This document shows, in pieces, positions 15,540-32,007 of a stretch of DNA of 64,000 nt. The DNA comes from Planctomycetota bacterium. Its GTDB lineage: Bacteria; Planctomycetota; B15-G4; SIAN01. The notes beneath the pieces were generated by a model that was not told where the DNA came from, ran no database searches, and saw nothing but the letters and a program-made list of their open reading frames with translations. A program made the translations under genes and the position numbers. The stretch lies in the NCBI GenBank assembly GCA_009691715.1, contig SIAN01000023.1:3059-67058 (forward strand). The letters run 5' to 3'. Positions within the stretch are counted from its first letter, which is position 1. Each line of letters starts with the position of its first letter.

Positions 15540-15808
15540 AACCGATCTAGGTGCGGAATCAGCCGTGCGATGCCGCACGAAATGTTGTTACGCAATCGCG
15601 CGCAGTGGCATAGAAAGGGACGCCTCCCCGGGGGAATGACGCGGGGAGCGCCTCCCCTCGCTAGGCCGCCAGCCTGGTTTCGAGCTTGAGGCGCACACCG
15701 GGAACATCGGCTTGCCACTTCGAGCGGAGCATCGCCGTGTCGCCGGGCGCGTCGTCGCCAGTCGGTGCGCGCGTCGAACCGCCAGTCTGAAACGCGGAGC
15801 AACGCGAG

Positions 15809-18163
15809 ATGGCGCGATTGACGATCTCGGGACCGGACGGTGCACGCGACGTCGTGCTCGGCGACAAGTTGGTGATCGGCCGAGTCGAGGGCGCTGACCT
15901 GGTCCTCGACGACAAGGGCATCTCGCGGCGCCACTGCGAGTTCGAGCGGCGTGGCGACGGCTACGTCGTGCGCGATCTCGGCAGCAGCAACGGCACGTTG
16001 GTGAACGGCGACAAGATCACGGAACGCCCGCTCGTCGCCGGCGATCGCGTCCGCGTCGGTGGCGTGACGCTCACCTACGCGACCGCCGACGCCGACGCGC
16101 TGCTGCGATTCGTCGCCGGCGAGCACGCTGGCCGCGACGTGCCGCTGTCGGGAGCGCGCACGACACTCGGGCGACGGCCGGAGAACGCAGTCGCGTTCGT
16201 CGATGTGAAGGTCTCCGGCGTCCACCTCGAAATCGTTCGTGAAGACGACGGCTACGTGCTGCGCGACCTTGGCAGCACCAACGGCACGCTGCTCGACGGC
16301 AAGAGAGTGACGACCGAAGTCGCGCTGTCACACGGCGATCGCGTCCAGATCGGCGCGAGCGAGTTCCGTTTCGTCGACTCGCGGCGCGGCGAATTGGCGG
16401 CCGGCGGAGTATCGAGGAATGAGGTCAGTGCAGCGGGCGGCGGAGCGGCACACGCGGCGACGCTGCCACCGCAGAAGAGCAAGGTGGGCGCGATTCTGAG
16501 CCTTGCGGGTGTCGCGCTCGCAGTCGGCGGTGCAGGAGCGTGGTACTTCATGCAGGGCCAGGAGGCGCCGCCAGCCAGCGGACGGCAGGCACCGGCCGCG
16601 CCGAGCGGCACGCTGCTGGTCGAAGATTGGTCGTTCGAACTGCCCGGCGAAGTCGATTCGCTGTGGGGCGCTGAACTTGGCGCCGGCTTCAGTGCCCGGC
16701 GCGGCCGGGCGGCGTCGGGCAGCTACGCGCTCGTCGCGTCCGTCGCCGACGGGCAGGCAACGGCATCGCGGCGGCAGCGCGTGGCGCTCGCGTCGTCACG
16801 TCCGCTGCACGCGAGCGGCCAGCTCTCCGCCGATGACGGGGCGCTCGGCTCGGTCGCACTGCGCTTCCTCGGCGACGATGCGGATGGTGCGACGCCGCGT
16901 CAGTGGAGCGTCGTGCTCGCGACCAGCAACGCAGCCGGGTTCGCGTCGTTCGAGTGCGACGTCGACGTGCCGGCATGGGCCACCGGCGTCGAGGTGGTCG
17001 TCGTGGCTCGTGGCACCGGCGAGGTGGCGCTCGACGATCTGGCGTTGACGCCGGGCAGCGCGCCCACCGGCCGAGCCGCGTTCGGCGACCTCGCGTTGGC
17101 ACCGCGCGGGCCGGCGAGCTGGTTCGTCGACTATCACGCGCCGCTGCTCGAACTGTTCGAGCCGACGGGCGAGGGCGCGATCGCGGCGGCAGAACTCAGT
17201 GCAGAAGAGGACGGCGCGAGGCGCAGCGGTTCAGTGGCGAAGGGCGCGCTGCCGCCTGGCGCTTTCTTGGCGCCGGCGAAGCAGGACGGCGCCGCGTTCG
17301 CGCTCGATCCGGGACGCGCGCCATTCGCGGCGAGCGGGTTTGCATTCGAGCTGGCACCGGAGCTCGCGGCCCGCGGCGTGACGCTGTTGGGCGAACTGCC
17401 CACCGATCGCCGCTTCGGCCCGTTCGTCGCCGAAGGCGTGAAGCAACTGCTGCTCGGCGCCGCCGCGGAGCGCTTCGAGATCGCGCTCTCCGCCGCGACG
17501 AAGGTGACTGCGACCCAGCGCGGCGATGTGCTGCGGATCGAGCTCGCTCTGTCGGCGCCGTTGCGCGTGACGCTGCGCAGCGACTTCACTGCGGAGCGCG
17601 CCGAGGCGTCCGTGCTGGTCGCCAAGGCGCAGGAGGAATGGCGCGCGGGCAAAGCCGGCACCGCGCTCGGTCGATTGCGGGAGATTCGGGAACGCCTGCC
17701 GCACGACGACAAGGCGGTCGACACGGCGCGCAAGCTGGAGAGCGAGATCGTGCCGAAGCTCGAGGCCGAGTTGGCGGTCATCGACGCTGAGGCGACTGGC
17801 GCCGAATTCCTCGGCAGCCTCGATCACTACCGGAGCACTCTGGCGCGCGCGCGCGCGGTGCTGCCGCAGGCGGAGGGGATCGACTCGGCGCGCGCACTCG
17901 CGGCGCGAGTCGAGCGCATGCAGGCGCAAGCCGCAGTCATGGAGCGCGAGCGGCGGGAAGAAGAGGCCGCGCGACTGTTCCGATTGGCGAGGGCCTATCA
18001 GGCGCAGCTCGAGCCGGCGCCCTTGCGACCGGCGACCGCCGCCGAATTGCTGGCCGAATTGCAGCGGAGCTACGGCGACACCACGGCCGCGCGCGAAGCT
18101 CGCGGCGAGACTGCGCCGGAGCCGGTGAACGTCGAACGCGGCTCGATCGAAGGGGGAAACTGA
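15809..18163 (+). CDS. Membrane protein with two N-terminal FHA domains, one TM helix and a large C-terminal (periplasmic?) region
   Basis: FHA1: LVIGRVEGADLVLDDKGISRRHCEF...YVVRDLGSSNGTLVNG. FHA2: TTLGRRPENAVAFVDVKVSGVHLEI...YVLRDLGSTNGTLLDG. TM: VGAILSLAGVALAVGGAGAWYF. Then a beta-rich segment and a helical C-terminus. Confidence 0.88.
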   Translation: MARLTISGPDGARDVVLGDKLVIGRVEGADLVLDDKGISRRHCEFERRGDGYVVRDLGSSNGTLVNGDKITERPLVAGDRVRVGGVTLTYATADADALLRFVAGEHAGRDVPLSGARTTLGRRPENAVAFVDVKVSGVHLEIVREDDGYVLRDLGSTNGTLLDGKRVTTEVALSHGDRVQIGASEFRFVDSRRGELAAGGVSRNEVSAAGGGAAHAATLPPQKSKVGAILSLAGVALAVGGAGAWYFMQGQEAPPASGRQAPAAPSGTLLVEDWSFELPGEVDSLWGAELGAGFSARRGRAASGSYALVASVADGQATASRRQRVALASSRPLHASGQLSADDGALGSVALRFLGDDADGATPRQWSVVLATSNAAGFASFECDVDVPAWATGVEVVVVARGTGEVALDDLALTPGSAPTGRAAFGDLALAPRGPASWFVDYHAPLLELFEPTGEGAIAAAELSAEEDGARRSGSVAKGALPPGAFLAPAKQDGAAFALDPGRAPFAASGFAFELAPELAARGVTLLGELPTDRRFGPFVAEGVKQLLLGAAAERFEIALSAATKVTATQRGDVLRIELALSAPLRVTLRSDFTAERAEASVLVAKAQEEWRAGKAGTALGRLREIRERLPHDDKAVDTARKLESEIVPKLEAELAVIDAEATGAEFLGSLDHYRSTLARARAVLPQAEGIDSARALAARVERMQAQAAVMERERREEEAARLFRLARAYQAQLEPAPLRPATAAELLAELQRSYGDTTAAREARGETAPEPVNVERGSIEGGN

Positions 18164-18164
18164 G

Positions 18165-19907
18165 ATGGGCGCGCGCGGATGCGGGATTGATGAAGGCAGC
18201 GCGACCGTCAAGGTCGTTGAGGTCGAGCTGAAGGACGGTGCGCTGGTCCCGGTCGGGGCGTTGGCGCTGCCGGCGGTCGAGACCGGCCTCGACTCGGCGG
18301 CGCTGCAGAGCGCGATGAAGCAGAGCGGCATGAAGTCGCGCCAAGCGGTCCTGGGTCTCACCGGCAAGGACCTGGTGATCAAGTACCAGCAGGTCCCGCC
18401 GGTCGCAGACTTCCAGCTGAAGAAGATCGTCGCGTTCGAGCTCGACGAGATCCGCAAGCAGTCGGGCGACAAACTCGCCGCTGACTTCAACGTGATGCCG
18501 TCGCGTGCCGACCTCACCAGCGACGACATCGTGCTGATGGCGTTGTCGCGCGAGCAGCGCATCGAGGATCGCTCGGCCGCGCTGGCTCGGGCGGGCGTCA
18601 CGACCCGCCACTTCACGCCCAACGCCATCGCGCTCTACCACGCGTTCCGTGCCTTCGGGCCGGCGACCAGCGGCGACGTGTTGGTCGTTTCGATCGGAAA
18701 GCAGTCGTCCGACTTCGCGGTGATCCGCGACGGCGATCTGCTCTACGCCCGCAGCGTCGGCACCGGCGGCGACGTGCTAACTGACGCCATCGCGGCCGAG
18801 TTCGGCGTCAGCAAGGCGAAGGCGGAGAGCCTGAAGCGCGAACTTGGTGACCTGCGGCCGCGCGACAAGCGGGCCGGCCTGTCGCAGCAGGCGGAGAAGG
18901 TGAGTTACGCGCTCGAGGGCGCCGCCGGCCGGCTGTTCAGCATGGTGCAGTCGACGCTGCAGTTGGCCAAGGGCCAGATGCAGCTGAACCAGCTCGAGAT
19001 CAGCAAAGCCTGGATCACCGGCGGTAGTGCGGTGATGAAGGGGCTCGACGAATACCTTTCGGGCAACCTCGGCGTGCCGGTGCAGCGGTTCGATCCGCTG
19101 GCGGAGGCAGGAGTCGCGGTCGAAGGCGCCGGCACGCTCGACCTTGCGGTCGCGGCCGGACTCGCGGTCATGGCGGCCGACGGCGAATCGTGGTCGGTCG
19201 AGCTCCTCACCGCCGCAGAGAAGACTCGGCGCGATTGGACCAAGAAGCACGTCTTCACTGTCGCCGCGCTGGTGGCGGTGCTGGCCTACCTGGGCGTCTA
19301 CGCGTGGCAATGCCAGTCGCGCCACGACTTGGCGTTTCGACAGGCGAGCAGGGTCACCCTTGAGTGGAAGAAACGACAAGCCAACAGCACGTCGGTCGAG
19401 CGGCTCCGCGGCGAGCGCGGCGACCTCGCGGCGAAGGTCGACCTGCTGGAGAAGCGCAAGGCGGCCGGCGACGGACTGGTGCGCGCGCTCGGGATGTTGT
19501 CGACCCAACTGCCGGAGGATCTCTGGGTGACCGAGCTCGAGCTTGAGATGCTCGAGTCGAAGGCGGCGGCGAAAGACAAGGTGGCGAAGAAGCCGATGAT
19601 CGTCGTCGACGGCGCCGGCAAGTCGCGCGGCACGCGGTCGATCGACGACAGCTACCTCGCCTTCGTCGACACGGTGCGCGCCCTCGACGCGAAGATCGAT
19701 TGGAAGCCGGCGGACATCATCGAGACCCAGACGGTCAAGGGTGGCCAGGTCGAATATCGGCTGAACCTCACCTGGCTCACCGAGCCGGCGGCCAAAGTCG
19801 TGGACGACGCGGCGGCGGACGACACGGCAGGGCCGTCGAAGAGCCCGCCGAAGAATCCATCGAAGAGTTCCACGAACAATGCGGCCAAGCCGTCGGGAGG
19901 CAACTGA
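18165..19907 (+). CDS. PilM-like actin-fold domain fused to a PilN-like TM/periplasmic domain (GspL-like architecture)
   Basis: N-terminus CGIDEGSATVKVVEVELKDG, as in PilM GxDxGSxxxKxV. TM at VFTVAALVAVLAYLGVYAW, then a coiled coil and LPEDLWVTELEL (PilN-like). Starts 1 nt after the FHA gene stop. Confidence 0.75.
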   Translation: MGARGCGIDEGSATVKVVEVELKDGALVPVGALALPAVETGLDSAALQSAMKQSGMKSRQAVLGLTGKDLVIKYQQVPPVADFQLKKIVAFELDEIRKQSGDKLAADFNVMPSRADLTSDDIVLMALSREQRIEDRSAALARAGVTTRHFTPNAIALYHAFRAFGPATSGDVLVVSIGKQSSDFAVIRDGDLLYARSVGTGGDVLTDAIAAEFGVSKAKAESLKRELGDLRPRDKRAGLSQQAEKVSYALEGAAGRLFSMVQSTLQLAKGQMQLNQLEISKAWITGGSAVMKGLDEYLSGNLGVPVQRFDPLAEAGVAVEGAGTLDLAVAAGLAVMAADGESWSVELLTAAEKTRRDWTKKHVFTVAALVAVLAYLGVYAWQCQSRHDLAFRQASRVTLEWKKRQANSTSVERLRGERGDLAAKVDLLEKRKAAGDGLVRALGMLSTQLPEDLWVTELELEMLESKAAAKDKVAKKPMIVVDGAGKSRGTRSIDDSYLAFVDTVRALDAKIDWKPADIIETQTVKGGQVEYRLNLTWLTEPAAKVVDDAAADDTAGPSKSPPKNPSKSSTNNAAKPSGGN

Positions 19908-20686
19908 TGGACCTCGCGGATATCTGGCAGCAGCACAAGCGATTCATCCTGCTGGTGGCGAGCGCGTTGCTCCTGCTGCTGGTGGGGCGCGGCGTGATCC
20001 ACTCGAAGTGGGACTACGAAACGGTGGTCGTGTCGTCGGCCCGGACCACGGGCGTGATGAGCAAGGCGGAGAAGGTGCCCGACGAGGTGGTGCGCGCGCT
20101 GCAGGAAGAGGTGACGGCGCTGCGCTCCCGTTATGCGGCGCTGGCGACGACGATGCGCCACAAGCCGCAGGAGGCGTTCATCGTCCCGGCGGGAGAGAGC
20201 AACCCGCGCTCGTACTTCTTCCGGCGTCACAGCGAGACGAAGTCGGCGTTGATCGAGGCGGCGGAACGGCAGGACATCCGCGTGCCCGAGGCGCTCGGCT
20301 TGAAAGACATGGCGCCGACCGAGCCCGACGAGATCCGTCGGCAGTTGGTGGCGCTCGATGTCGTGCAACAGGTCGTGATCGAGTCGATCGGCGCGGGCGT
20401 GCGGCGCATCACGACGATCCAGATCGAGGACGCCAGCAAGGGCCGCAGCAAGGCGTCGAGCTTCCTCGCCGACCTGCGCGTGCGCTTCACCATCGTCGGC
20501 GGTGAGAAGTCGATTCGCACGCTGGTGATCGGGTTGGTCGATGGCGCGGCGCGCGGACAGGCCGCGTTCCTTGCGATCGATCAGGCGCGGCTGAAGCCGG
20601 TCAAGGGCGAGCTCGGGATGCTGGAGCTCGACCTCACGGCGGCGGCGCTGCAGATCGACAAGAGCGCGGACGAGGAGACGCCGTGA
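19907..20686 (+). CDS. PilO/GspM-like bitopic assembly protein
   Basis: MDLADIWQQHKRFILLVASALLLLLVG TM, coiled coil, C-terminal alpha/beta region. ATG shares 1 nt with the upstream TGA. Confidence 0.6.
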   Translation: MDLADIWQQHKRFILLVASALLLLLVGRGVIHSKWDYETVVVSSARTTGVMSKAEKVPDEVVRALQEEVTALRSRYAALATTMRHKPQEAFIVPAGESNPRSYFFRRHSETKSALIEAAERQDIRVPEALGLKDMAPTEPDEIRRQLVALDVVQQVVIESIGAGVRRITTIQIEDASKGRSKASSFLADLRVRFTIVGGEKSIRTLVIGLVDGAARGQAAFLAIDQARLKPVKGELGMLELDLTAAALQIDKSADEETP

Positions 20687-23469
20687 TGGCGCGCCCAGGC
20701 AAGGAACAGACCTTCTTCTTCGCCAGCATCGGCCTCACCGGCCTGCTGGCAACGTTGCTGCTGACAGAAGAGTTCAAGACGCTGCCGATCCCCGCCGGCA
20801 AGGCGTTCAACCGCGACCTGCTCGACGCGCGCGGCGTGCCGACGGCCCCGCGCGGCGCCTTGCACGACCGCAGTTTCGCGCGCGACGGGCGCGAGGCATT
20901 CCGCGAGCCGCGCGACTGGCTGCCGCTGCCGGCGGTCAACCTCGAACGGCCGCCGCTGCGCGACCCGGCCTATGTGCCGCCGCCGACGCTGCCCGCGGCG
21001 AGCCTGTCGCGTCTAGGGATCTATCGGCAGGCGACGAACGTGACGGCGCACGAGTTCGCGGGCGAAGGCGCCAACGCCGCCGGCGATGGCGCGGCGGAGG
21101 AGGAAGCGCGTGCGCCGGCATCGGCGGCGGCTGCCAGTGCGGCGCCGGGCGCGAATAGCAGCGCCGCGAATGGCGCCGCGAGCGGAAGCAGGTCGCCAAG
21201 TGCTTCCGGCGCGGGGCAGGGTGGCGCGCCGCTGCTATCGCGCGACGAAGAGTTCCAGAAGAAGTACGACTGGCTTGACCTCGCGCTCGACGCGAAGCCG
21301 TGGTACGTCGTCATCAAGAACGCCGACAAGTTCGGGCTGCTCGACGGCACCGCGACGGAGATCGAGTTCACCCGGATCAACCCGGTGACGGGCCGCGTGA
21401 TGATCGGCGGCAAGCTGCCGTTCGAACGGCTGAAGCCCGGCGGGATTCACTTCGCCGAGACGCCGTTCAATCGCGCCGAACTGAAGCTGCGCGAGGTGCG
21501 TGAATCGCAGTGGGGTCCGACGACGTTGCCGCACCTGCTCGACGCGGCGGCGGCGGCGATCGCGCTCGGGATCGGCGATCCAGCGTGCTACCGCTCCGCC
21601 ATCGCCAGGCTCGAGAAGTGGCTCACGATCGATCTGAAGCAGGCGCGCACGTACGAACTGCTCGCCGACGCCAAGGCGGCGTTGCTCGATTTCGAGGGCG
21701 AGTTGCTGATGCTGCGGCGGGCCGAGGCGGCCGGAGTCGAAGGCGCCGGACTCGCAGTGCGGCACGCCCGTTGGCTGGCGCGAGTGGGGGCGCGCGCCGG
21801 AGCGCTCGCGCGGTTGGCGGCGACCGTGCAACGCTTCCCGACCGATCGCGACGCGCATCTGGCCTACGGCCGCGCGCTGCTCGACGAAGGCTCGCCGGCG
21901 AGCGTCGACCTCGCGGTGCAGCGGTTCGCGCAGGCGGAGCAGGCGTCGAACTCGATGGAGCAGCGCATCGAGGTGATCGCGGAGACGGTCAGCGCGCTGC
22001 TCGAACGCGGCGATGCGGCGCGCGCTCTCGACGAAAGCAAACGGATCCTCAAGATCGATCCGCAGTCGGTCGTGGGCCTGCGATTGCAGGGGGCGACCGA
22101 GTTCGCGCTCGGCCTCCTGACCGAGGCCGAAGCCGACTTCGGGCGGATGGCGGGCGCCGCTCGCAACGTCGGCGAAGAGGGCGAGGCACTGCTGTCGCTC
22201 GGTGTCGTGCGCACGCGGATCGGCACGTTCGACTTGGCGCGAGACGATCTTGCGCGGGCGCCGCAACGCGATCCGCTCTTGGCCGGCGCGGCGGCGGTGG
22301 CGGAGGCGGAGCTGCTTGCCGTCACTGGGCACCTTGATCAGGCCGTGACGCGCGCTCGCGATGCTTTCGCCCGCGCGCCCGACGACGCCTTCGTCGGTTA
22401 TTTCCTCGGCCGTCTGCTCCGACAGTCAGGCGATCTGGAGGGCGCCCGCGCCGAGCTGCGTCGGGCGCTCGACCTCGGCGCCGGCTTCCCCGACCTGTTC
22501 AACGAGCTCGGCTTCGTCGCGTTGTCGCAAGGTGTCGCCGATGATGCGCGGCGCTACTTCATCGAGTCGCTGGCGCGCGAGGAGCGCGACGAAACGCGGC
22601 TGCTGCTGGCGCATGCGCACCTGCTGGCCGGCGACTTGGCGCGCGCGCGGTCGCTGTTCGAGCAGCTCCAGTCGAAGAAGACCACCAGCGAGTCGCTGCT
22701 CGGCCAGGCGTTCTGCGCCTACCGTTCCGGCGACAGCGCCACCGCGCAGCAAGGTTGGCTGCAGGTGCGCGACGAGCTGAAGGGCGCGCCGACGGAAGAC
22801 GTCGCCTACGCGACCAAGTGGTTGGCGGCGGTACAGGACCTCGAGAGCAAGCAGGTCTGGGACGACGCGCTGCAGTGGAGCGAGGTCGGCAATGGCTGGG
22901 ATGCGACCACGAGCTTCGGGCCCGAGCTCAAGTCGACACCGCCGGGCAACGTGCGCATCTCTGGGACGCAGAAAGCGCCCGCCGACGTCGGCAACTGGAC
23001 CATTTTGAAGCGCGAGGTCGAGCTGTCGCTCTACCACGAGTTCGAGGTCGAGTGCTCGTTCGCGCCGGAGCACAAGGGGCGGATGGGGATGGGGCTGGTG
23101 CACTACCAGCCGGGAGCCGCCGGTCAGCCGCCGCGCGTCCGCGCCGCGTTGACGATCGCGCTCGATGTCGACGGCACGGTCTGGCTGCAGCGCTGCGAGC
23201 ACCCGGGCGACGAGGAGTTCAAGAAGATCGGCACGCACACCGTGAAGCCGGGCGACACGGCACGAATCACGCTGCGGCGGAGCGAGCGCGGGAACGAGAA
23301 GTTCCAGTTCCTGCTCGACGGCGCGCCGATCACCGAGGTGGTCGAGATGGCGCCGTGGAAGGGGCGCACGCGGCAGGGCGTCGCGGCGCTTTTCTTCGGC
23401 TCGGCACCAGCGGGCAAGACGTGCGACTTGAAGCTCGAACGGGCGCGGCGCATCGAGTTCTTGCCGTGA
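20683..23469 (+). CDS. TM-anchored TPR-repeat protein with a C-terminal lectin-like beta-sandwich domain
   Basis: N-terminal TM FFFASIGLTGLLATLLLT. Central degenerate TPR/helical repeats (about aa 330-700). The C-terminal about 200 aa are beta-rich (ILKREVELSLYHEFEVECSF...TIALDVDGTVWLQ...FQFLLDGAPI). Start GTG 20683 or ATG 20686 overlaps the upstream stop. Confidence 0.8.
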   Translation: MMARPGKEQTFFFASIGLTGLLATLLLTEEFKTLPIPAGKAFNRDLLDARGVPTAPRGALHDRSFARDGREAFREPRDWLPLPAVNLERPPLRDPAYVPPPTLPAASLSRLGIYRQATNVTAHEFAGEGANAAGDGAAEEEARAPASAAAASAAPGANSSAANGAASGSRSPSASGAGQGGAPLLSRDEEFQKKYDWLDLALDAKPWYVVIKNADKFGLLDGTATEIEFTRINPVTGRVMIGGKLPFERLKPGGIHFAETPFNRAELKLREVRESQWGPTTLPHLLDAAAAAIALGIGDPACYRSAIARLEKWLTIDLKQARTYELLADAKAALLDFEGELLMLRRAEAAGVEGAGLAVRHARWLARVGARAGALARLAATVQRFPTDRDAHLAYGRALLDEGSPASVDLAVQRFAQAEQASNSMEQRIEVIAETVSALLERGDAARALDESKRILKIDPQSVVGLRLQGATEFALGLLTEAEADFGRMAGAARNVGEEGEALLSLGVVRTRIGTFDLARDDLARAPQRDPLLAGAAAVAEAELLAVTGHLDQAVTRARDAFARAPDDAFVGYFLGRLLRQSGDLEGARAELRRALDLGAGFPDLFNELGFVALSQGVADDARRYFIESLAREERDETRLLLAHAHLLAGDLARARSLFEQLQSKKTTSESLLGQAFCAYRSGDSATAQQGWLQVRDELKGAPTEDVAYATKWLAAVQDLESKQVWDDALQWSEVGNGWDATTSFGPELKSTPPGNVRISGTQKAPADVGNWTILKREVELSLYHEFEVECSFAPEHKGRMGMGLVHYQPGAAGQPPRVRAALTIALDVDGTVWLQRCEHPGDEEFKKIGTHTVKPGDTARITLRRSERGNEKFQFLLDGAPITEVVEMAPWKGRTRQGVAALFFGSAPAGKTCDLKLERARRIEFLP

Positions 23470-23489
23470 GCGGAGTTCCTGCCGTGCAA

Positions 23490-24137: not shown

Positions 24138-25215
24138 GCGGATTGCGGCCGGATGCAGCGCTCGACCACGCGCGACGCGCGCCGGCCGAGGCGGGTTCAC
24201 GTTGATCGAGATGCTGGTCGTGATGTCGATCCTGGGCGTGCTGATGGGTCTGTCAGTCGCAGCGTTCCAGCGCAGCGTCCCGCGCCGTGATCTTGCGCGT
24301 CGCGCCGTCCTCGACGCGTTGCGTCAGGCGCGACTGTTCGCCATCGCCGAGAACGCGCCCGCAACCGTCCGGCTCGATCCCGGCAACGAGGTCGATTCGA
24401 GCAGCGCGAACGCGTGGCCGACGGTCGGTGCGCTCGGCCGCAAGACGGTCGGCTGCTGGCACCTCGAAGGGACCGATCTTGCGGGCTGGCCGAACGATCT
24501 GCGTGCCGCCGGAGCGGAGGAGGAGGCGCGCGGCGCCTTCGGCCACGCGCTGCTCCTCAGCGCCGACGAACCGTCGTGGCTCGAAGCACCGATCGTGCCG
24601 GCGTTCGAGTCGATGAACGGCTTCGCCCTCGAATGCTTCCTCAAGTGCGACCGCCTGCGCAGCCAGCTCCTGTTCAGCAAGGGCCGCGCGATCGCGCTGC
24701 GGCAGGAGAGCGGTGGGGCGCTGACGTTGCAGGTGCAAGTCGAAGGGCGCGACGACGACGGCGAGCCCAAGGCGACCTACCAGAGCGTCAGCTCGCCGAC
24801 CGGCGTGGTGCCGGCCGGACGCTGGTTCAAGCTGGCGGCCACGTTCGACGGGTTGCAGTTGCGCCTCGCGGTCGACGACGCGGTCGTCGCCGAGTTGGCG
24901 CTGCAGCAGCGGATGGCGTTCCTCACCGATGCCGGGGTCGCGCTGCTCATCGGCGCCTATGACGAAGCGGCCGGGATCTCCGTCGACGAGTTCAAGTGGG
25001 GCATTTTCACCGGGGACACGCACGAGCTGCGCGACATGGAGCTCGGGCCGGTGGAGTCAGGCGCCCGATTCGTGCGCTTCGGTCCCGACGGCGCGCTCGA
25101 TCCCCGTTTCCATCAGGCGCCGGTCAACCTGCTGTTGCTCACGCCGACAAGCGATCCCGAAAAGAAGCCGATCGAGACGTGGGTGCGCGTGGGGCTGCTC
25201 GGAGACGTGCAATGA
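24115..25215 (+). CDS. Prepilin-type protein (GspH-like N-terminus) fused to a LamG/concanavalin-like domain
   Basis: GRGG|FTLIEMLVVMSILGVLMGL. LamG-like segment FALECFLKCDRLRSQLLFSKG...LTLQVQVEG...GRWFKLAATFDGLQLRLAVDD. Overlaps the upstream gene by 23 nt and the downstream gene by ATGA. Confidence 0.82.
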   Translation: MTMRRTSERIAAGCSARPRATRAGRGGFTLIEMLVVMSILGVLMGLSVAAFQRSVPRRDLARRAVLDALRQARLFAIAENAPATVRLDPGNEVDSSSANAWPTVGALGRKTVGCWHLEGTDLAGWPNDLRAAGAEEEARGAFGHALLLSADEPSWLEAPIVPAFESMNGFALECFLKCDRLRSQLLFSKGRAIALRQESGGALTLQVQVEGRDDDGEPKATYQSVSSPTGVVPAGRWFKLAATFDGLQLRLAVDDAVVAELALQQRMAFLTDAGVALLIGAYDEAAGISVDEFKWGIFTGDTHELRDMELGPVESGARFVRFGPDGALDPRFHQAPVNLLLLTPTSDPEKKPIETWVRVGLLGDVQ

Positions 25216-28200
25216 AGACCCGTGGCGTCGCCTTGCCGCTGGTGCTGGCGGTGCTGGTCTGTCTGGTCGCGGTAGCGATTCCGTTCGCGTTGTCGATGCA
25301 GCACGAGCAGGGTGGCGTCGCCTACCGGACGCACGAAGACGAGGCGCGGCGCGCGGCGATGGCGGTGCGCGACATGGCGCTGGCGCATCTCGGTGCCACA
25401 GCGCCCGACCGTGACGACACGCCCTGGGTCGATTCACTGGCCGAGCTCGACGTCGATGTCGCGGCACGCGCCGATGACCTCGCAATCCTGAATTTGGGGC
25501 CGCGCGGACGGCTGCTGTCGGCGAGCGTCGAGGATCAGTCGGGGCGAGTCGACATCAACTGCTCGAACCTCTTCCTCACCGCGCGCCTGCTCGGCATGGC
25601 GACGACGCTGTCGTCGAAACTGACTCCCGACGACAAGCAGTTCCGGCTGTCGGATGGCGACTTCCTCGCCGACTCCGGCTTCCTCTGGATCGACGGCGAG
25701 GTCACCTACTACCAGCGCCGGGAAGGCAGCACGATCCACGACTTCCAGCGGCCGGCGATCGTGCCGGGCGTCTGGGAACCGCCGCTCCTCCCGACGGAGC
25801 CGAGGGAGTTCGCGGCCGGCACACAGGTGATCGACTTCCGGGCCTGGATGGTGGCGGCCTGGCCGTGGAAGGCGCAGGCCGGCATCGAGTCGCGCTTCGA
25901 GTCGATCACCCATCCGCTCGCGATCGCCAACTTCGGCCGCGGCGCGCTCGGGCCGGCGGAACGTGCGCGGCTCGAGCAGTTCGCCACGATTTGGTCCGCG
26001 GATGGCGGGCGCGATCGGTTCGGCAACGCGCAGCGGATCCTCACCTCGATCATCGCCGGCGAGACCCAGCAGATTCGCATCGAGCAGGGGCAGTTCGTCG
26101 GCGCTGGCATGCTGGCGCGGATCACGACGTTCGGCGGTCGCGAGGTCGAGTACGGCTTCGTGCTGCGCAGCCAGGAGCGGGGCGAGTTCGCGGAACTGAC
26201 ATTCGAGATGGCGCCGCGCATCAGCGTGGATGCCGGGCAGGCGAAGGTCGAGTTCCTGCTGCCGCGTCCGGTGAACGTCAACAGTTGCACGCGTGAGACG
26301 CTGGCCCTGCTGCTCGAAGGGCTGCAGATGCGCGGCGGCGGCAAGTCGGTCAATCGCGACACGGCGGAGCTGGTCGCGGCGCGGATCGTGCAGGCGCGTC
26401 CGCTCGATGGGATGCGGAGCCTGATCGTCCTGCTTGATGAAATGGTGGAGCGGGAGAAGGTCCTCGATGGCGCGCACCGCGTCGCGATCCTCAGGAACGC
26501 CGAACACTCCGGCTGCTACGACCTCGAATTCGGCACCGCGCCGTTTTGCTACGCCACCGACGGTGTCGTCGACGTGCGCGCCGCCGCCAGCTTGAACTGG
26601 GAGAACGGTCGCGAGCAGGCGCGTGCGCTAGTGCGCGAAGTCGTCGCGACTGCCGCTGCCGGAGTCGGCGCGCGGATCGCGAAGACGCAGCGTGATTTCG
26701 ACGAGCCGTGGCGCATCAGCCGGCTCGCGCGCGGGTGGACCACGTTTCCGGAGAACCTCAACTTTTGGTCCGGTGGCATCGGGTCGGCCGATCCGCCGAG
26801 CCGGCTGATCGCGATGGCGTCGCCGCGGCTCCGGTTTCCGATCGAGGAGATGAGGGACTCCGCCGTGCGACTCGCGCCGGCGTGGTACGACCTCGAGGCG
26901 ATGCCGGCCGACCGCACCTGGCACTTCGACGGCCGGCGCGACGACTTCGAGTCGGACGATCCCGACGGCTGGCGCCTCTCCGACGGGCCGATCGCGCTGA
27001 ACACCAACGGCAACAGTCCCGGCGTCGCGATGACGCAGAACCTCTCCGGCATCGAACGGCCGAAGCCCTTCGGCATCTCGATGTGGTGGAACCCGGGCAC
27101 CAACCTGACGATCGAGCAGACGCTGTTCGACTGGCAGTGCAACTCCGCGGTGGCGGTCTCCGGGCTTTCCGATCGCGTGCGACTGCGAATGGTTGCCGCC
27201 AAGCTCGAACTCGAGGTGGACGATGCGTTCTTGCGCGCGTCGGAGGACGATCTCTACACCGCGAAGATCGTCTACGACTTCACCGATGGCTTGCCGCTCG
27301 AAGGCGACACCTGGTACCACGTGACGGCGTTCTGCCGCGGCAATCGCGCCGGCCAGATGAGCCTCTGGGTCGACGGCAAGCCGCGCGGCAAGTACAGCCA
27401 CTACGCGCGCACCACCGGTGCCTTCACCGCCAGCGCGCAGGGGGCGAACCGGATCGCGATCGACCCGAAGCGCCTCGCCAACGGCACGGCAAAGTTCCCG
27501 CCGCGCGGCGCGGTGCGGATCAACAACGACGTCTTCGAGTACTCGTCGGTGAACGCGTCGAACTTCACCGTGCAATACGACCAGGACAACCGCTTCGGCG
27601 GCATCCGGCCGGCGCCCCCGCTGCAACTGCAGTCGGCCGCGACCAGCGCCGGGACGCAGGCGACCTCATCGACCAATCATCCGGCGACCAGCGGTGTCGA
27701 ACTCTACGGGTACGCCGCGCGACTCGACTCCGACCTGCCGGCCGGCGAGGTCACGCTCGACAGCAACGGCCTCGGCGAGTTCGGCGTGGCGATGGTGTCG
27801 CCGGCGATGGGGCAGGCGAACATCGAGGTGGCAGTCACGAACCCGGGACCGCCTCCGCTCGGCGGCAACAACCCGAGCATCACGCTCGGGCGCGGTTTCG
27901 ATTCCGACGCGACCACGATCCTGGTGTCGGCGCTCGATGGCGGGAAACTGCCCAGCAGCAAGCCGCCGCTCAGCAGGAACGGCGGGTACGCCGCGCTGGT
28001 CGGCTACTACTTCGGCACGCTCACGCCGAACGACCCGACCAGCCGCGATGAGGGCGGCACGCTCGAGTCGACCCAATCGACGACGGGCAGTTGGATCCAG
28101 GGCGTCGAGATCATTCACTACGGGGCGTTCGACGGCGCGCAGTTGACCAAGGTGGTGCGCGGCCAGTCGCTCAAGTCGGCGGAGATCAAGTCGACCGATC

Positions 28201-30311
28201 TGGCCGAGTACGACGACCAAGCGGTCCCGTCGGGCGGCGGGATCAACACGATCTACCACTTCACCGACAAGCACGCGTGGGTCGTGGTCCCCGACAAGCA
28301 GACCTTCGCCGCCTACACGGCGCCGTTCTTCACCATCCTGGTGGTGCCGCTCAGCGTGATCGTGTCCGGCAGCCCGAAGCTCGCGCTGTTGGTGCCGGAG
28401 CAGCAGAATCCCGGCTTCGATCGCTGCGAGATGGCGCAGATCGGCTCGCCGACTTCCCACGGCGTGTTCGATCCGACCGAGTGGATCCGCTACGACGCGA
28501 TCGTGCAGGATCAGAACGGGCGGTGGAACCTGCTGCGTGCCGACCCGAAGCGCCTCGGCGCGGCCGAGTCGTTCGCGTCGTCGACGCGGCGACCCTCCGG
28601 CCAATCCAACGCCTTCGACGGCAACGGCGCCGCCGACTACCTCCTCGCCATCGCCTCCAACCCGTTGAGCTACGCGATGAGCAGCGCCGCCTACGAGGAC
28701 TTCGTCGAGGCGCTGAATCAGGAGAGCCTCTACGGCGGCGATCCGGACAACAACAGTGGCGGGCATCGACTCGCCTTCCGCGGCGTGCTCGACACCGGCT
28801 ACAAGGACAAGGAGCACGAAGGCGGCGAGTCGATCTACCCGGTCTGGCGCACCTCGCGCACCGGACCCAAGCCGGGCCGCTACGACGAGATCACCATCGT
28901 CGGCAGCAACCGCGAGCCGCCCGAGCGCCACTTCCTCAACTACGCCTGGTGCAACGACAGCGCCGAGGACTGGAGCGGTTCGTGCCACTGCGCGCTGTTG
29001 GCGGAAGGGGCGGGCACGAAGTTCGTCCGCACCCAGAATCTCGGCGTGCAGGCGACCAGCGCCACCAACGTCGCGGCCAACATCGCCTGGTACGGTGACT
29101 CGCGGAACTTCGCCCGCATCCTCAAGTTCCCGTCGGGCGAACTGCCGAGCCTCGCCGATCCGGGCAGTCAGATCACCATCGGCGGCAGCCTTGGCGGGAC
29201 CGGTGGAGCGGGCGCCGCGGGTGGCGCCGGTGAAGGTGCCAAGATCGACGAAGTGCGCGTGTTCGCGACCGACGATCCGCAGCCGATCATGTCGCACGGC
29301 CTGCACGTGCTGAACCGTGAATTGACCGCGACCGAGCAGGACCGCTTCGAGATCGGCGACGATCTCCTACGCTTCCCGCACCAGACCTCCGGCAGCATCG
29401 GCGCGACGCCGAACCTGCACGGCGACGCCTCGGTCTGGCAGATCGGCGACGAGTTCATCGTCTGCGGCGAACGGCAGATGGGACAACCAGTGGTGCAGGA
29501 AATCGCGCCGGATGGTCGGATCAAGTTCTCCGGCACCGACGACTTCTACGTCGCCGGCTACCACGCGCAGGGCGAGATGCTGCAGGTGCTGCCGTGGCTG
29601 GTGATGACCCGACTTGCGGCAGGCATGTCGAGCGGCGACTCGGAGATCGCGCTCAACGACCCGGCGGGGTTTCCGCCGAAGGGCTGCGTGATGATCGATC
29701 AGGAGGTACTCGCCTACACCTCGCGGCAGTTCGGCGGCGGTGGCGGCAGCGGGCAGGCGCTCTATGTGCCGACGTTCCTCGCCGACCCCGACGGCCGCTC
29801 AAGCCAGTCGCGCGGGGAAGCGGCGTTCCGCGGCCGTTTCGGCACGCCAGTGATGACCCACTCGGCCGACGCCGTCGTTTTCTTCTGGAACTACCGCTAC
29901 GCCGACGGCTACCACGAGCGCTGCGACATCCCCGAGATGGCGACGCTGGAGATGCCGTTCGCCGCGCGCCGCGGCCTGTTCCACGCGCTGTCGTGGATCG
30001 AGCAGAAGAGCGACCCGTTGGTGAAGCTGATCGCCACCGTGCGCGTGCAGGGACAAGGCGGATTCACCGGCGATCCCGAAGACGATCCCGACCTGTTCGT
30101 GTTCGACCAGCCGGGGACGCGCGAGCGGCCGAACCGGATCGACCGCCAAGGCGACCTGCTGCGCGTCCGCTTCAACGTCGACTACCTCGACGGCGCGCTC
30201 GATTCGGTCGACTTCACCAAGAACTCGTGGAAGCGCGCGCCGCTGATCGAAATCGTGAGCGTCGAGCAACTCGCCGGCCGCGTGGTCGAACTGCACGAGG
30301 AGTCGCGCTGA
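25212..30311 (+). CDS. Giant (1699 aa) GspK-like minor pseudopilin with a large C-terminal extension containing a LamG-like domain
   Basis: N-terminus MKTRGVALPLVLAVLVCLVAVAI (GspK-type RGxAL, no Glu+5). VEDQSGRVDINCSNL (GspK DExGkiNiN motif). PVNVNSCTRETLALLLEGL...TAELVAARIVQARPLDGMRSL (HhH/SAM-like). LamG-like FGISMWWNPG...TWYHVTAFCRGNRAGQMSLWVDGKPRG. Real start is ATG 25212 (ATGA overlap), not ORF-track 24996. Confidence 0.85.
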   Translation: MKTRGVALPLVLAVLVCLVAVAIPFALSMQHEQGGVAYRTHEDEARRAAMAVRDMALAHLGATAPDRDDTPWVDSLAELDVDVAARADDLAILNLGPRGRLLSASVEDQSGRVDINCSNLFLTARLLGMATTLSSKLTPDDKQFRLSDGDFLADSGFLWIDGEVTYYQRREGSTIHDFQRPAIVPGVWEPPLLPTEPREFAAGTQVIDFRAWMVAAWPWKAQAGIESRFESITHPLAIANFGRGALGPAERARLEQFATIWSADGGRDRFGNAQRILTSIIAGETQQIRIEQGQFVGAGMLARITTFGGREVEYGFVLRSQERGEFAELTFEMAPRISVDAGQAKVEFLLPRPVNVNSCTRETLALLLEGLQMRGGGKSVNRDTAELVAARIVQARPLDGMRSLIVLLDEMVEREKVLDGAHRVAILRNAEHSGCYDLEFGTAPFCYATDGVVDVRAAASLNWENGREQARALVREVVATAAAGVGARIAKTQRDFDEPWRISRLARGWTTFPENLNFWSGGIGSADPPSRLIAMASPRLRFPIEEMRDSAVRLAPAWYDLEAMPADRTWHFDGRRDDFESDDPDGWRLSDGPIALNTNGNSPGVAMTQNLSGIERPKPFGISMWWNPGTNLTIEQTLFDWQCNSAVAVSGLSDRVRLRMVAAKLELEVDDAFLRASEDDLYTAKIVYDFTDGLPLEGDTWYHVTAFCRGNRAGQMSLWVDGKPRGKYSHYARTTGAFTASAQGANRIAIDPKRLANGTAKFPPRGAVRINNDVFEYSSVNASNFTVQYDQDNRFGGIRPAPPLQLQSAATSAGTQATSSTNHPATSGVELYGYAARLDSDLPAGEVTLDSNGLGEFGVAMVSPAMGQANIEVAVTNPGPPPLGGNNPSITLGRGFDSDATTILVSALDGGKLPSSKPPLSRNGGYAALVGYYFGTLTPNDPTSRDEGGTLESTQSTTGSWIQGVEIIHYGAFDGAQLTKVVRGQSLKSAEIKSTDLAEYDDQAVPSGGGINTIYHFTDKHAWVVVPDKQTFAAYTAPFFTILVVPLSVIVSGSPKLALLVPEQQNPGFDRCEMAQIGSPTSHGVFDPTEWIRYDAIVQDQNGRWNLLRADPKRLGAAESFASSTRRPSGQSNAFDGNGAADYLLAIASNPLSYAMSSAAYEDFVEALNQESLYGGDPDNNSGGHRLAFRGVLDTGYKDKEHEGGESIYPVWRTSRTGPKPGRYDEITIVGSNREPPERHFLNYAWCNDSAEDWSGSCHCALLAEGAGTKFVRTQNLGVQATSATNVAANIAWYGDSRNFARILKFPSGELPSLADPGSQITIGGSLGGTGGAGAAGGAGEGAKIDEVRVFATDDPQPIMSHGLHVLNRELTATEQDRFEIGDDLLRFPHQTSGSIGATPNLHGDASVWQIGDEFIVCGERQMGQPVVQEIAPDGRIKFSGTDDFYVAGYHAQGEMLQVLPWLVMTRLAAGMSSGDSEIALNDPAGFPPKGCVMIDQEVLAYTSRQFGGGGGSGQALYVPTFLADPDGRSSQSRGEAAFRGRFGTPVMTHSADAVVFFWNYRYADGYHERCDIPEMATLEMPFAARRGLFHALSWIEQKSDPLVKLIATVRVQGQGGFTGDPEDDPDLFVFDQPGTRERPNRIDRQGDLLRVRFNVDYLDGALDSVDFTKNSWKRAPLIEIVSVEQLAGRVVELHEESR

Positions 30312-31522
30312 TGGCACCGCGCTGCGCCACTCGCCGCTCTGCGGCGAATCGATCGTCGCGTGCCGGCATGACACTCGTCGAGCTGATGGCCGCGATGACG
30401 ATCTTCCTCGGCCTTGCGGGAATGGTGCTGCAGGTGATGGGCGGCGGGCTCGACCTGTGGGTGACCGGCGAGCGCACGCGCGACGAGGGCGAGCAGGCGA
30501 GCGCGTTGCTCGACCGCATCTCCGCCGAACTGCGCCACGCCGTCGCCACCGACAGCGGTGAAGGCGAGCCGCGGGTGAAGTTCCTCTGCGACACGATCAC
30601 GCAGGACACCGATGGCGACGGGACGCACGACTTCCGGGCGCAACGACTGCTGTTCGTGCGCCGCCTGAGCGAAGAGCGCGTGCATCCGCCGTTGGTCGCG
30701 GCCGGCACGCACGAGCAGGGGGCGCAGCCGTTCGTGGGCGCGATCGAGTCGGCGGACGCCCGCTTCCAGGCGACTGAAGGACTGGTCGAGCAGGCGTTGC
30801 TCGCGCAACCTGACATGCGCGTCGGCTACGAAGGGCGGATCGTGCTGTGGCGGGCGCTGCGCAGCCCGATCGGTGGGCCGGAGAGTTTCTTCGCCAACGC
30901 GTTGCGCGATGGTGGAGGCCTCGATCGCGCGCCGCTCGAACCGCTGGCCGAAAACGTGCTGCTGTTCGCACTGGGGTTCCTCTCCGACAACGTGAACGAA
31001 AGCGTTGAAGATCCGGCCGCCCTGCCGGGCGACGCGCGCGGCCCGCAGTTCGTCTGGGATTCGACGCGCGGGATCCTGCCGCCGGGCGATGGCTTCACCG
31101 GTTTCCGTCAGGCGCGCAGCAACGCCTCGTTGAAGGACGCGGACGACGACGTCTTCCCGACGGCGGTGCGCATCACCGTCATCGTGGCGCCGCCTCCTGG
31201 CGAAGCGCCGCAGGCCGAGATCCAAAACGACATCCCGGCCTCGGCCGGCACGGTGCGCGTTGAGCTCCGGAATGGCCGCCACCTGAAGAAGCTCGGCGAC
31301 ATTGCGCGGTTGCTGAAGCTCGGCCACGAATGGGTCGAAGTCGCGGAGACCGACGGCGCCTCGCTGCTGATCACGCAGCGCGGACTGCTCGGCACGGCGC
31401 CCGCCATCCACCTCGCCGGCACCAAAGTGTTGGTCGGCCAGCGCTTCGAGCGGATCGTGTCGCTGCCCTGCGGGCGCGGCGACCTGATCTCGCGCGAGAT
31501 CGACCGCGGAGTGCAGCGATGA
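30311..31522 (+). CDS. GspJ-like minor pseudopilin (403 aa)
   Basis: SSRAG|MTLVELMAAMTIFLGLAGMVL class III signal with Glu+5. ATG shares 1 nt with the upstream TGA. Confidence 0.75.
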   Translation: MAPRCATRRSAANRSSRAGMTLVELMAAMTIFLGLAGMVLQVMGGGLDLWVTGERTRDEGEQASALLDRISAELRHAVATDSGEGEPRVKFLCDTITQDTDGDGTHDFRAQRLLFVRRLSEERVHPPLVAAGTHEQGAQPFVGAIESADARFQATEGLVEQALLAQPDMRVGYEGRIVLWRALRSPIGGPESFFANALRDGGGLDRAPLEPLAENVLLFALGFLSDNVNESVEDPAALPGDARGPQFVWDSTRGILPPGDGFTGFRQARSNASLKDADDDVFPTAVRITVIVAPPPGEAPQAEIQNDIPASAGTVRVELRNGRHLKKLGDIARLLKLGHEWVEVAETDGASLLITQRGLLGTAPAIHLAGTKVLVGQRFERIVSLPCGRGDLISREIDRGVQR

Positions 31523-32007
31523 ACGCGGCACGCCATGTGGCGCACGTTTCGGCGCACGTTTTGGAGTGCGGTGCTCCTCGCCGTCGCGACGCCGGCTTCA
31601 CGCTGCTCGAGGTGATGGCGGCGCTGTCGATCTTCCTGGTCGGCATCGTCAGCGTGCTGGCACTGCTGTCGACCGGGACCCGGCTGCATCAGGATTCGCG
31701 CGCGATGGCGATTGCGGCCGATGCGGCCGAGGAGATCCTGCTGCGCGCGACCAGCGAGCTCTCGGAGCTGGCCTCGGCGGAGGGCGCCGCGTTGCCGGAA
31801 CTCGCGACCGCGCAGCCGGTGCCGGGTCGCCCGGGACTGAGCTACCAATGGCGCGTCATCACCGCGCCAGAAGGCGGGCTGTACCGCCTGCTGGTCGAGG
31901 TGAGCTGGCAGCAGGGCGGCAAGCGCCGCACGCAGCAGCTCGAACGGGTTCTGCCGCGGCTGCGCTCGCCGAGCGCCGACGCGGCGAAGCTGCTGGCGGA
32001 ACGGTGA
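31519..32007 (+). CDS. GspI-like minor pseudopilin (162 aa)
   Basis: RRDAG|FTLLEVMAALSIFLVGIVSVLAL. Small size and C-terminal beta region (YRLLVEVSWQQGG) typical of GspI. ATGA overlap with the upstream gene. Confidence 0.75.
   Translation: MNAARHVAHVSAHVLECGAPRRRDAGFTLLEVMAALSIFLVGIVSVLALLSTGTRLHQDSRAMAIAADAAEEILLRATSELSELASAEGAALPELATAQPVPGRPGLSYQWRVITAPEGGLYRLLVEVSWQQGGKRRTQQLERVLPRLRSPSADAAKLLAER

Follow-up and report, generated by a model that had tools for sequence, protein, structure and literature searches.

A conserved FHA-headed type IV filament operon of Planctomycetota with no motor genes in cis

We analysed a 64,000-nucleotide stretch of DNA from a Planctomycetota bacterium (GenBank assembly GCA_009691715.1, contig SIAN01000023.1, positions 3,059 to 67,058; the whole stretch is called the window below), in which nine same-strand genes, g1 to g9, form a type IV filament operon with an FHA-domain protein at its head. 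The operon is genuine, is maintained by selection and represents a lineage-specific version of a machine type already known. We put at roughly 0.6 the probability that it encodes the lineage-specific half of a Planctomycetota type IV filament machine whose motor is supplied in trans and whose filament carries a lectin-type tip. The observations that carry this reading are the gene structure, the family and fold assignments, the conservation and selection of the genes, and the absence of a motor in cis.

The operon, the hairpin that precedes it and the gene that follows it (outside the range first described) are laid out as follows:

15564..15579, + strand: terminator-like hairpin, 3' of the upstream short-chain fatty acid (SCFA) transporter gene (consensus scan only)
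15809..18163, + strand: g1, 784-residue double-FHA membrane protein
18165..19907, + strand: g2, 580-residue predicted PilM-PilN fusion
19907..20686, + strand: g3, 259-residue bitopic protein of predicted PilO/GspM class
20683..23469, + strand: g4, 928-residue TPR protein with a transmembrane (TM) anchor
23490..24137, + strand: g5, 215-residue prepilin, probably of the GspG family
24115..25215, + strand: g6, 366-residue predicted modular prepilin with LamG
25212..30311, + strand: g7, 1,699-residue GspK-family protein
30311..31522, + strand: g8, 403-residue prepilin
31519..32007, + strand: g9, 162-residue prepilin
32118..33656, + strand: g10, 512-residue secreted protein

Thus g1-g4 encode four bitopic proteins of the inner membrane, and g5-g9 encode five proteins of the pilin class. 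All nine open reading frames (ORFs; 15809-32007, 16 kb in total) have zero internal stops, and the junctions from g1 to g9 measure +1, -1, -4, +20, -23, -4, -1 and -4 nt, the start and stop codons being translationally coupled. The G+C content at third codon positions (GC3) is 0.84-0.89 in these frames, which marks them as coding, in a window of ~68% G+C. An earlier description of this DNA (the original prediction) had reported nine touching or overlapping genes, and its coordinates, open frames and all eight junctions were reproduced. The hairpin is predicted to mark g1 as the first gene of a new transcription unit; consensus scans upstream of g1 (15540-15808) found no sigma-70-like or sigma-54-like promoter.

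The operon is widely conserved. One genome per GTDB species was scanned. Of the 94 relatives of g2 returned, 80 were retained; nearly all are from Planctomycetota metagenome-assembled genomes (MAGs), and one is from the cultured Engelhardtia mirabilis Pla133 (NZ_CP036287). Long MAG contigs with the operon include CBDFJQ010000002, JAUHXU010000001 and JADJLZ010000001. The order g1-g7 is kept in essentially all 80, down to ~28% PilM identity (tblastn), and because it recurs in 80 independent genomes the arrangement is not a chance one. The synteny search proposed with the original prediction therefore finds the same order in at least 80 species-level genomes, with g8-g10 judged only where the downstream end is visible; there, g7 is followed by g8, g9 and g10 and then by genes for a peptidyl-prolyl isomerase (PPIase)-like protein, ScpB and rnpA, as in the window. 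Those of the homologues that have names are all called 'hypothetical protein'. Synteny with three relatives (loci L003, L090 and L091; 48-68% PilM identity) extends past the operon over window positions 8197-15539 and 33797-43630. The shared upstream flank comprises ProRS, an FG-GAP protein and the SCFA transporter, and the shared downstream flank the PPIase-like protein, ScpB, a SurA_N-like protein, YidD, RnpA, a TPR protein, NDK and an extracytoplasmic function (ECF) sigma factor. The module is thus part of a stable core-genome stretch and not of an island.

We estimated selection against three relatives. The dN/dS of g1-g7 is 0.30-0.51, similar to that of the adjacent transporter (0.27-0.46) and about twice that of ProRS (0.17, with the same close relatives); these values come from the Nei-Gojobori method (NG86) and are rough, since strong GC3 bias and high divergence compress dS. 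The operon genes are under purifying selection. In this respect the original prediction, which had contrasted lesion-free, selected operon genes with broken neighbours, stands in its first half only: the checked neighbours ScpB, NDK and atpD are intact and the only damaged-looking genes seen near the operon are two insertion sequence (IS) remnants (6545-7156 and 62878-63999). The impression of broken neighbours arose because ORF listings over-extend N-termini, giving apparent overlaps. A further reading, that the locus is a decaying, non-functional type IV filament remnant, agrees with the lack of motor genes in cis and supposes that the motor has been lost. However, the nine ORFs are intact over 16 kb, their order is kept in at least 80 species, their dN/dS of 0.3-0.5 is like that of a neighbouring functional gene, and their starts and stops are translationally coupled; conservation and selection effectively refute it.

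The inner-membrane platform was best resolved for g2. This protein has an actin-like PilM domain (1-340), a long helix with a TM segment (363-381) and coiled coil, and a periplasmic beta-beta-alpha-beta-beta domain (453-536). Pfam PilM_2 matches it at 1e-22 (81 bits against a cutoff of 27). An AlphaFold2 model, with a predicted local distance difference test (pLDDT) score of 84, shows the actin-like domain, a very long TM-containing helix and the beta-beta-alpha-beta-beta domain, and its best Foldseek matches are Pseudomonas aeruginosa PilM (5eou, 2.5e-24), Myxococcus xanthus PilM (3jc8_Ma) and a Thermus thermophilus structure (2ych). Because of the layout of the model and because the best structural matches are PilM, g2 is modelled as a PilM-PilN fusion with GspL topology, the cytoplasmic domain being PilM-type and not GspL-type. 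The NCBIfam family Amuc_1101_fam (NF045709) matches residues 46-477 with 130.5 bits (E 9e-38) against a cutoff of 650 bits, which makes g2 a distant relative of that family and not a member.

The g3 protein has a TM segment (13-31), helices and a C-terminal alpha-beta-beta-alpha-beta-beta domain (AlphaFold2 model, pLDDT 72). Pfam, NCBIfam and PDB profile searches placed it in no family by sequence; T2SSM_b matched one unspecified protein (3.6e-4) of a mixed set that includes 28 g3 sequences. The predicted structure did resolve g3, where the PDB sequence-profile search had not: Foldseek returned Akkermansia Amuc_1100 (6lad/6kny, 2e-8, target-normalised TM-score 0.62-0.73), then PilO (2rjz, 1e-4), 3jc8_Oa and the C-terminal domain of PulM. 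On this model, g3 has a PilO/GspM-class fold, nearest to that of Amuc_1100. With the PilM_2 match and fused PilN-like domain of g2 and the PilO-class fold of g3, the operon holds the PilM, PilN and PilO alignment proteins that characterise a type IVa pilus (T4aP). The original description of a type IV filament module with PilM/N/O-like inner-membrane parts is borne out by the PilM_2 match, the two models and the Foldseek results.

The same two proteins bear on an alternative, namely that the operon supplies the pseudopilus and assembly platform of a genuine type II secretion system (T2SS), with gspD, gspE, gspF and gspO elsewhere in the genome, in which a periplasmic piston expels folded exoproteins. 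Here g2 and g3 would be GspL and GspM, and g1 or g4 would substitute for GspC. The one-chain cytoplasmic-TM-periplasmic topology of g2 is that of GspL, and g3 has PulM as one of its structural matches. However, g2 has a cytoplasmic domain of PilM type and not of GspL type, and no operon protein carries a GspC-type homology region (HR) or PDZ domain. We regard a T2SS as possible but unlikely, with further evidence on both sides from the pilins and the motor genes below.

The other two inner-membrane proteins are distinctive features of the operon. In g1, two cytoplasmic FHA domains (~1-92 and ~97-190) precede a TM segment (226-244), a periplasmic beta-sandwich resembling a carbohydrate-binding module (CBM) and a helical C-terminus. 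Pfam FHA (PF00498) matches two stretches (5e-39, 133 bits), and a profile of the orthologues matches the FHA domain of GarA at 1e-25 in a PDB profile search. The phosphothreonine-binding residues G121, R122, S136, H139, N158 and G159 (the GR, SxxH and NG motifs) are invariant among 28 orthologues and FHA1 carries GR, SRRH and NG, so that the phosphothreonine-binding residues of the FHA domains are intact; the original claim that an FHA protein leads the operon is upheld. Profile positions 206-431 match the CBM of a hyaluronate lyase (4d0q, 1.9e-7) and the CBM22 of xylanase Y (1.5e-4). Pfam Yop-YscD_cpl also matches g1, and the NCBIfam models for GltG, TagH and SctD match its FHA region below the family cutoffs. 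To our knowledge, no FHA protein built into a PilMNO-type platform has been described, and this operon may encode one.

The g4 protein has a TM segment (10-28), a conserved proline-rich stretch (seen in the orthologue consensus), a TPR region (~360-700) and a C-terminal beta-rich domain of ~200 residues that is possibly concanavalin A (ConA)-like. Pfam TPR families match it, the PDB profile search returned TPR proteins only, and the TPR region resembles, below cutoff, the pilotins PilW (NCBIfam, 2.7e-13) and Tgl (6e-8). When g4 C-termini, g1 periplasmic parts and g10 homologues were searched as one mixed set, a few of the sequences gave weak 3keto-disac_hyd and Laminin_G matches.

Downstream lie the filament subunits. 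Class III signals with Glu at +5 are present in g5 (RRAG/FTLVE), g6 (GRGG/FTLIE), g8 (SRAG/MTLVE) and g9 (RDAG/FTLLE), and are backed by N_methyl or TIGR02532 matches. The g7 protein starts with MKTRGVALPLVLAVL and has a GspK-type N-terminus (RGVALPLVLAVL) that lacks Glu5, a feature kept in orthologues together with the RG(V/I)AL start. These are the four signals and the GspK-type fifth of the original prediction, all as it wrote them.

The assignment of g5 as the major filament subunit, of the GspG family, is probable. N_methyl matches at 1e-7, NCBIfam gspG covers the N-terminal part only (2e-7, 31 bits against a cutoff of 88.85) and 19 of 32 orthologues have a Pfam T2SSG match, the strongest at 6e-7; read by eye, the C-terminus (...LISAGTDGLFGTDDDETNF) resembles the calcium-binding loop of GspG. 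The g6 protein (N_methyl 1e-7, Laminin_G_3 2e-5) is predicted to be a prepilin with a GspH-like N-terminus and a concanavalin A-like, lectin-type module; Laminin_G_3 recurs in 19/23 orthologues (best 8e-13), and NCBIfam GspH (1.9e-7) and Verru_Chthon D (5.5e-9) match below cutoff. Membership of the Verru_Chthon families C and D (TIGR02599 and TIGR02596) was considered and rejected: g6 scores 36.4 bits against the D cutoff of 70, g8, g6 and g5 score 12-17 bits against the C cutoff of 256.5, and all these Verru_Chthon matches are confined to the N-terminal pilin helix.

The most unusual subunit is g7. It carries the GspK signature motifs ED..G.(I/V)D(L/I)N and PVN.NTA, and its profile aligns with XcpX (5vtm) at PVNxNTA. 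The window protein is sub-threshold for NCBIfam GspK (E 0.0017); in relatives, Pfam T2SSK is found in 15/29 orthologue N-termini (3e-5) and in 9/27 independent family representatives (6e-6), and it is through them, with the missing Glu5, that g7 is placed in the GspK family. Beyond the GspK part are ~1,200 conserved residues, which include a LamG-like module at ~615-735 (LamG matches in 10/27 relatives) and a body of ~1,000 residues. The body family comprises 371 representative clusters, nearly all of 1,570-2,040 residues, and every named homologue is 'hypothetical protein [Planctomycetota bacterium]'. Profile searches found no PDB sequence relatives of full-length g7. It is probably a tip subunit or adhesin. 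Given the ~1,200 residues added to g7 and the concanavalin A-like modules in g6 as well as g7, the filament is likely to end in a large tip of lectin type.

The last two pilins are less distinctive. For g8, N_methyl matches below cutoff (5e-4) and TIGR02532 just above (18.1 bits against 16.3); its orthologues align end to end with a conserved WDSTRG...DDDVFP, and a profile search found no PDB relatives past the pilin N-terminus. For g9, N_methyl matches at 3e-7, NCBIfam PilV (5e-5) and GspI (8e-5) match the N-terminal part below cutoff, and the PDB profile search gave nothing beyond the pilin N-terminal helix. From their prepilin signal, size and position, we infer g8 to be of GspJ/PilW class and g9 to be a small minor pilin of GspI/PilV class. 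A motif, (I/L)G.E(W/L/V)..Y ... RG..GT....H..G, is common to g7 (~1495-1560) and g8 (~330-380). The sole match of the g8 profile, to a domain of the phage tip attachment protein J (8rk3), had an E of 0.85 and is non-significant, so this origin for the motif was rejected.

The T2SS-like pseudopilin set of the original prediction thus holds for the major subunit and the K subunit through T2SSG and T2SSK, while the J and I labels stand on signal, size and position. The profile checks it suggested gave FHA, PilM_2, N_methyl and Laminin_G_3 on the window proteins themselves, T2SSG and T2SSK through orthologues, and no family by sequence for g3. That the major and K subunits belong to T2SS Pfam families, and that a five-pilin G/H/K/J/I set is the T2SS complement, also favours a T2SS. 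Against this, a 1,700-residue, lectin-bearing K is ill-fitting in a periplasmic piston beneath a secretin, and minor pilins of the Thermus type IV pilus (T4P) can resemble T2SS pseudopilins (PMC5131608).

No product of the operon is able to process or polymerise its pilins. T2SSE, T2SSF, Secretin and Peptidase_A24 are absent from the window by Pfam (GC3-picked coding ORFs, ~5-64 kb, less a few short ORFs and atpD), and neither a GspE-type Walker A box nor the GGGDxK motif of the peptidase turned up in a six-frame scan of the window and of 89 related loci (up to 10 kb each side of a PilM-like or g10-like gene). The four families are not among the commonest of 161 upstream ORFs in the relatives, and none occurs downstream. 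There is no operon-linked secretin across ~80 genomes, which again counts against a T2SS, no GspC HR/PDZ domain in the operon proteins or the window and no GspD secretin in the window. The locus has no PilP, Secretin or Pilin (PF00114) match either, i.e. no component of PilP, PilQ or PilA type. In Legionella and Acinetobacter, T2SS genes are scattered over several loci, which can be counted for a T2SS here.

The absence of a motor, platform, secretin and peptidase in cis, as originally predicted, is upheld by the Pfam and motif scans and by the flanks of the relatives; its treatment as an anomaly is not. It is not odd because T4aP are usually multi-locus, with peptidases exchangeable between systems (PMC6668835), and because the motor genes of Engelhardtia lie at another locus: PilA-like, PilC, PilB, PilU, PilD, PilT, PilQ, PilO and PilM genes are at a separate locus there (bioRxiv 10.1101/817700, Tables S2/S3). 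The ATPase, platform protein, peptidase and any secretin of the operon machine would have to be encoded at other loci.

Could the operon simply equip that canonical pilus? An alternative minor-pilin and tip-adhesin set with accessory factors, plugged into the cell's own T4aP, would be comparable to the minor-pilin/PilY1 clusters of Myxococcus. The Saltatorellota preprint lists only canonical T4aP genes for Engelhardtia, and its table has one PilA-like gene plus machine genes, with no fimU-pilVWXY1-type minor pilins (bioRxiv 10.1101/817700). Minor pilins of the H/I/J/K type prime the assembly of T4aP, with K-type subunits as the docking site of large tip proteins (bioRxiv 10.64898/2026.02.14.705861). 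However, a PilM-PilN fusion, a PilO-class protein and a GspG-family major subunit of the operon's own are co-conserved with the pilins in ~80 genomes, individual PilM and PilO genes are already present at the T4aP locus of Engelhardtia, and a second alignment complex would be superfluous for a mere tip set. We therefore consider it improbable.

The recurrence of carbohydrate-binding-type folds (CBM-like in g1, LamG in g6 and g7, possibly ConA-like in g4) is also consistent with a device for polysaccharide export or handling, driven by pseudopilins like the cyanobacterial Hps system with a T4P motor, and a motorless pseudopilin set does resemble Hps. Yet the NCBIfam HpsB match of g9 is faint (0.015) and not significant, and neither the window nor the relatives show a gene for a glycosyltransferase, Wzx/Wzy or an ABC exporter linked to the operon. 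Such a device seems very improbable to us.

Regulation was approached through the upstream flanks. Among the 161 flank ORFs of the relatives, the commonest families are sigma-54 enhancer-binding proteins (18, some with FHA-GAF N-termini) and Hanks-type Ser/Thr kinases (15, one in Engelhardtia). Sigma-54 activators are upstream in 16 loci and directly 5' of the operon in L005, L008, L028, L034, L056, L063, L064, L070, L075, L076, L078, L080, L082 and L084, that of L008 having FHA and GAF domains. A -24/-12-like element, GGCAY-N5-TTGC, lies within 600 nt 5' of g1 in 5/14 activator-linked loci vs 3/52 others. A Hanks-type kinase is found a few kb 5' of g1 in 19 loci, on the operon strand in 18 (L026, L031 from Engelhardtia, with the kinase at 73-1929, L032, L033, L042, L045, L046, L051-L053, L059, L071-L073, L077 and L086-L088) and in the reverse orientation in L041. 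Two of the loci, L031 and L073, were looked at closely; in both, the kinase is within a conserved STK-CxxCxxCC-TPR/Peptidase_MA-RadC block. The window itself has no upstream kinase or sigma-54 activator gene and no sigma-54-like element 5' of g1.

The upstream kinase could be the one read by the g1 FHA protein, or merely syntenic; plain synteny could account for the linkage because RadC/RsmE-type genes intervene in the relatives. Because the FHA loops are intact and the kinase synteny recurs, phospho-dependent control of the filament module is suggested. The distinct phospho-regulated module of the original prediction accordingly gains kinases and FHA-bearing sigma-54 activators that recur upstream in relatives, with neither in the window, and stays a suggestion.

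The subunit roles, the use of a trans-encoded motor, the adhesive function and the phospho-control that we propose would combine as follows. A PilMN/O (GspL/M-like) platform of g2 and g3 would dock the ATPase, and would be extended across the periplasm by g1, as an FHA-TM-CBM-like scaffold, and by the TM-TPR protein g4. The I-like g9, J-like g8 and K subunit g7 would form the initiation or tip complex, which the H-like g6 would join to a polymer of major subunits, g5. At the tip, the giant g7 together with g6 would display modules of lectin type, with which the cell would adhere to glycans or capture them. Other loci would supply the prepilin peptidase, the hexameric ATPase, the PilC/GspF platform and any secretin, either as dedicated copies or from the canonical T4aP, and the two FHA domains of g1 may couple assembly to Ser/Thr phosphorylation. 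There is precedent for such a tip: a lectin-module minor pilin sits at the pilus tip in Streptococcus sanguinis PilC (PMC9934059), and recent work proposes that assembly is licensed when a K-class subunit or a large tip protein completes a beta-sheet to which I-J respond (bioRxiv 10.64898/2026.02.14.705861).

Several points weigh against this reading. The window proteins fall below the curated NCBIfam cutoffs for GspG, GspH, GspI, GspK, PilW and Amuc_1101, as they do for Verru_Chthon C/D; several assignments lean on orthologue sets or on predicted folds (pLDDT 72 for g3), and nothing past the pilin N-terminus identifies g8 or g9. No motor, platform, peptidase or secretin gene was located for the source MAG, of which the 64-kb window, on a contig of only 67 kb, was read. 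The T2SSG and T2SSK affinities are as compatible with a pseudopilus for secretion as with a pilus for adhesion, and the use of an own PilMN/O with the ATPase and platform of another system has little precedent. There is no kinase or phosphatase near the operon in the window, and the relatives' kinase is separated from g1 by RadC/RsmE-type genes.

A bolder reading, which we find doubtful, is that the operon defines a distinct phylum-restricted class of filament, in which the FHA/CBM scaffold and the TPR protein replace GspC/PilP-secretin coupling and a giant glycan-binding K tip is gated by a kinase. On this reading the K subunit, which licenses assembly, has fused with a lectin-bearing body of 1,200 residues, and the tip might be the genetic basis of some fibre or surface-capture structures in Planctomycetota and their shapeshifting 'Saltatorellota' relatives.

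The g10 gene, which follows the operon, is probably a tenth, syntenic member. Its product carries a signal peptide; a DnaJ-like CxxCxGxG...CxxC motif lies in the C-terminal part, and Pfam gave the protein no family. The gene follows g9 in L090 and L091, with a 4-nt overlap in L091, and weak homologues lie 3' of the pilin genes in the distant variants L064, L075 and L084. Homologues bear the names 'hypothetical' or 'TPR repeat protein'. A variant operon with a longer PilM-N fusion (620-660 residues) was seen in L064, L075, L076 and L084, and also in L078, L082 and L089; in L075, the one variant locus with ORFs listed, ORFs of ~446 and ~462 residues stand in place of the giant GspK-type gene. 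In the GenBank record, g2, g3 and g10 are EXS13_10520, EXS13_10525 and EXS13_10555. Because only five tags are left for the six genes g4-g9, one pilin gene among these is probably unannotated in the deposited record.

Much of the remaining window consists of housekeeping genes: ProRS, ATP synthase, AspRS, ThrRS, IF3, PheST, RNase P protein, NDK and 6S RNA. Other features are:

1-5057: rRNA operon, with 16S (cut by the window start), tRNA-Ile, tRNA-Ala, 23S and 5S
6545-7156, - strand: IS remnant, DUF4277 transposase-type ORF
7871-7946, - strand: tRNA-Ala(GGC)
60753-60939: 6S RNA gene
62878-63999, - strand: IS remnant, rve-integrase ORF ending 1 nt before the window edge

Planctomycetota are abundant polysaccharide degraders and surface colonisers whose envelope machines are poorly known. 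The operon belongs to the core genome, is conserved throughout a deep clade and lacks annotation, with no curated family for g3, g8, g10 or the body of g7. The same gene order is present in the cultured Engelhardtia mirabilis Pla133, where the operon could be studied. With K subunit and proposed adhesin in one chain, it would be an extreme case for the tip-licensing model. It also carries a caution for annotation: detectors that need an ATPase at the locus or close to it will overlook modules of this sort or put them in the wrong class.

We compared the operon with known systems. No description of it was found in the open-access and preprint literature searched, and no curated family covers it. 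It is like a T2SS in its five pilin-type subunits, with a GspG-family major and a Glu5-less GspK-family subunit, in its L-like single chain of actin-like domain, TM segment and periplasmic ferredoxin-like domain, and in its M-like partner. Unlike in a T2SS, the order is G-H-K-J-I, the L-like protein is PilM-type, the K has 1,699 residues and a lectin-like module (as does the H), the FHA and TPR proteins are integral and conserved, and GspC, D, E, F, N and O are missing from the locus and from its surroundings in the relatives.

With the T4aP PilMNOP(Q) and FimU-PilVWXY1E sets it shares the PilM actin domain, the PilN/PilO periplasmic domains, minor pilins with a very large tip-associated protein, a multi-locus arrangement with the motor elsewhere and a TPR protein reminiscent of the PilF/PilW/Tgl pilotins. 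It differs in that PilM and PilN are fused, PilP and PilQ were not detected in the operon, the major subunit is GspG-type and not PilA-type, and the large tip protein is the K-type pilin itself, whereas the PilY1 of T4aP is separate and docks on PilX/PilK. From the Amuc_1098-Amuc_1102 cluster of Akkermansia muciniphila, of the Planctomycetes-Verrucomicrobia-Chlamydiae (PVC) group, come the Amuc_1100 structures that best match the fold of g3 (at only 8-13% sequence identity) and the PilM-like, ~600-residue Amuc_1101 family that is the best, though sub-threshold, match of g2; however, that cluster includes the secretin Amuc_1098, and no pseudopilin, FHA or TPR protein is described there (PMC5332112).

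For the tip, S. sanguinis PilC likewise grafts a concanavalin A-like lectin module on a pilin moiety, as in g6 and g7, and TadG/CpaL supply a whole tip from one large K-class chain, as would g7. These known examples are from monoderm T4P or Tad systems, and g7 is ~3 times as large as the 52.8-kDa PilC (PMC9934059). Finally, g1 shares an N-terminal FHA domain, one TM segment and a large periplasmic part with SctD/YscD of type III secretion, TagH/Fha of type VI secretion and Myxococcus GltG, but its matches to them cover the FHA region only, below cutoffs, and its periplasmic part is CBM-like and helical, with no ring-building motifs. The operon thus mixes T2SS-type filament subunits with a T4aP-type, Akkermansia Amuc_1100/1101-like platform and is set apart by its FHA scaffold, TPR protein and 1,700-residue GspK fusion; it is real, conserved and uncharacterised, yet inside the well-known plasticity of type IV filaments.

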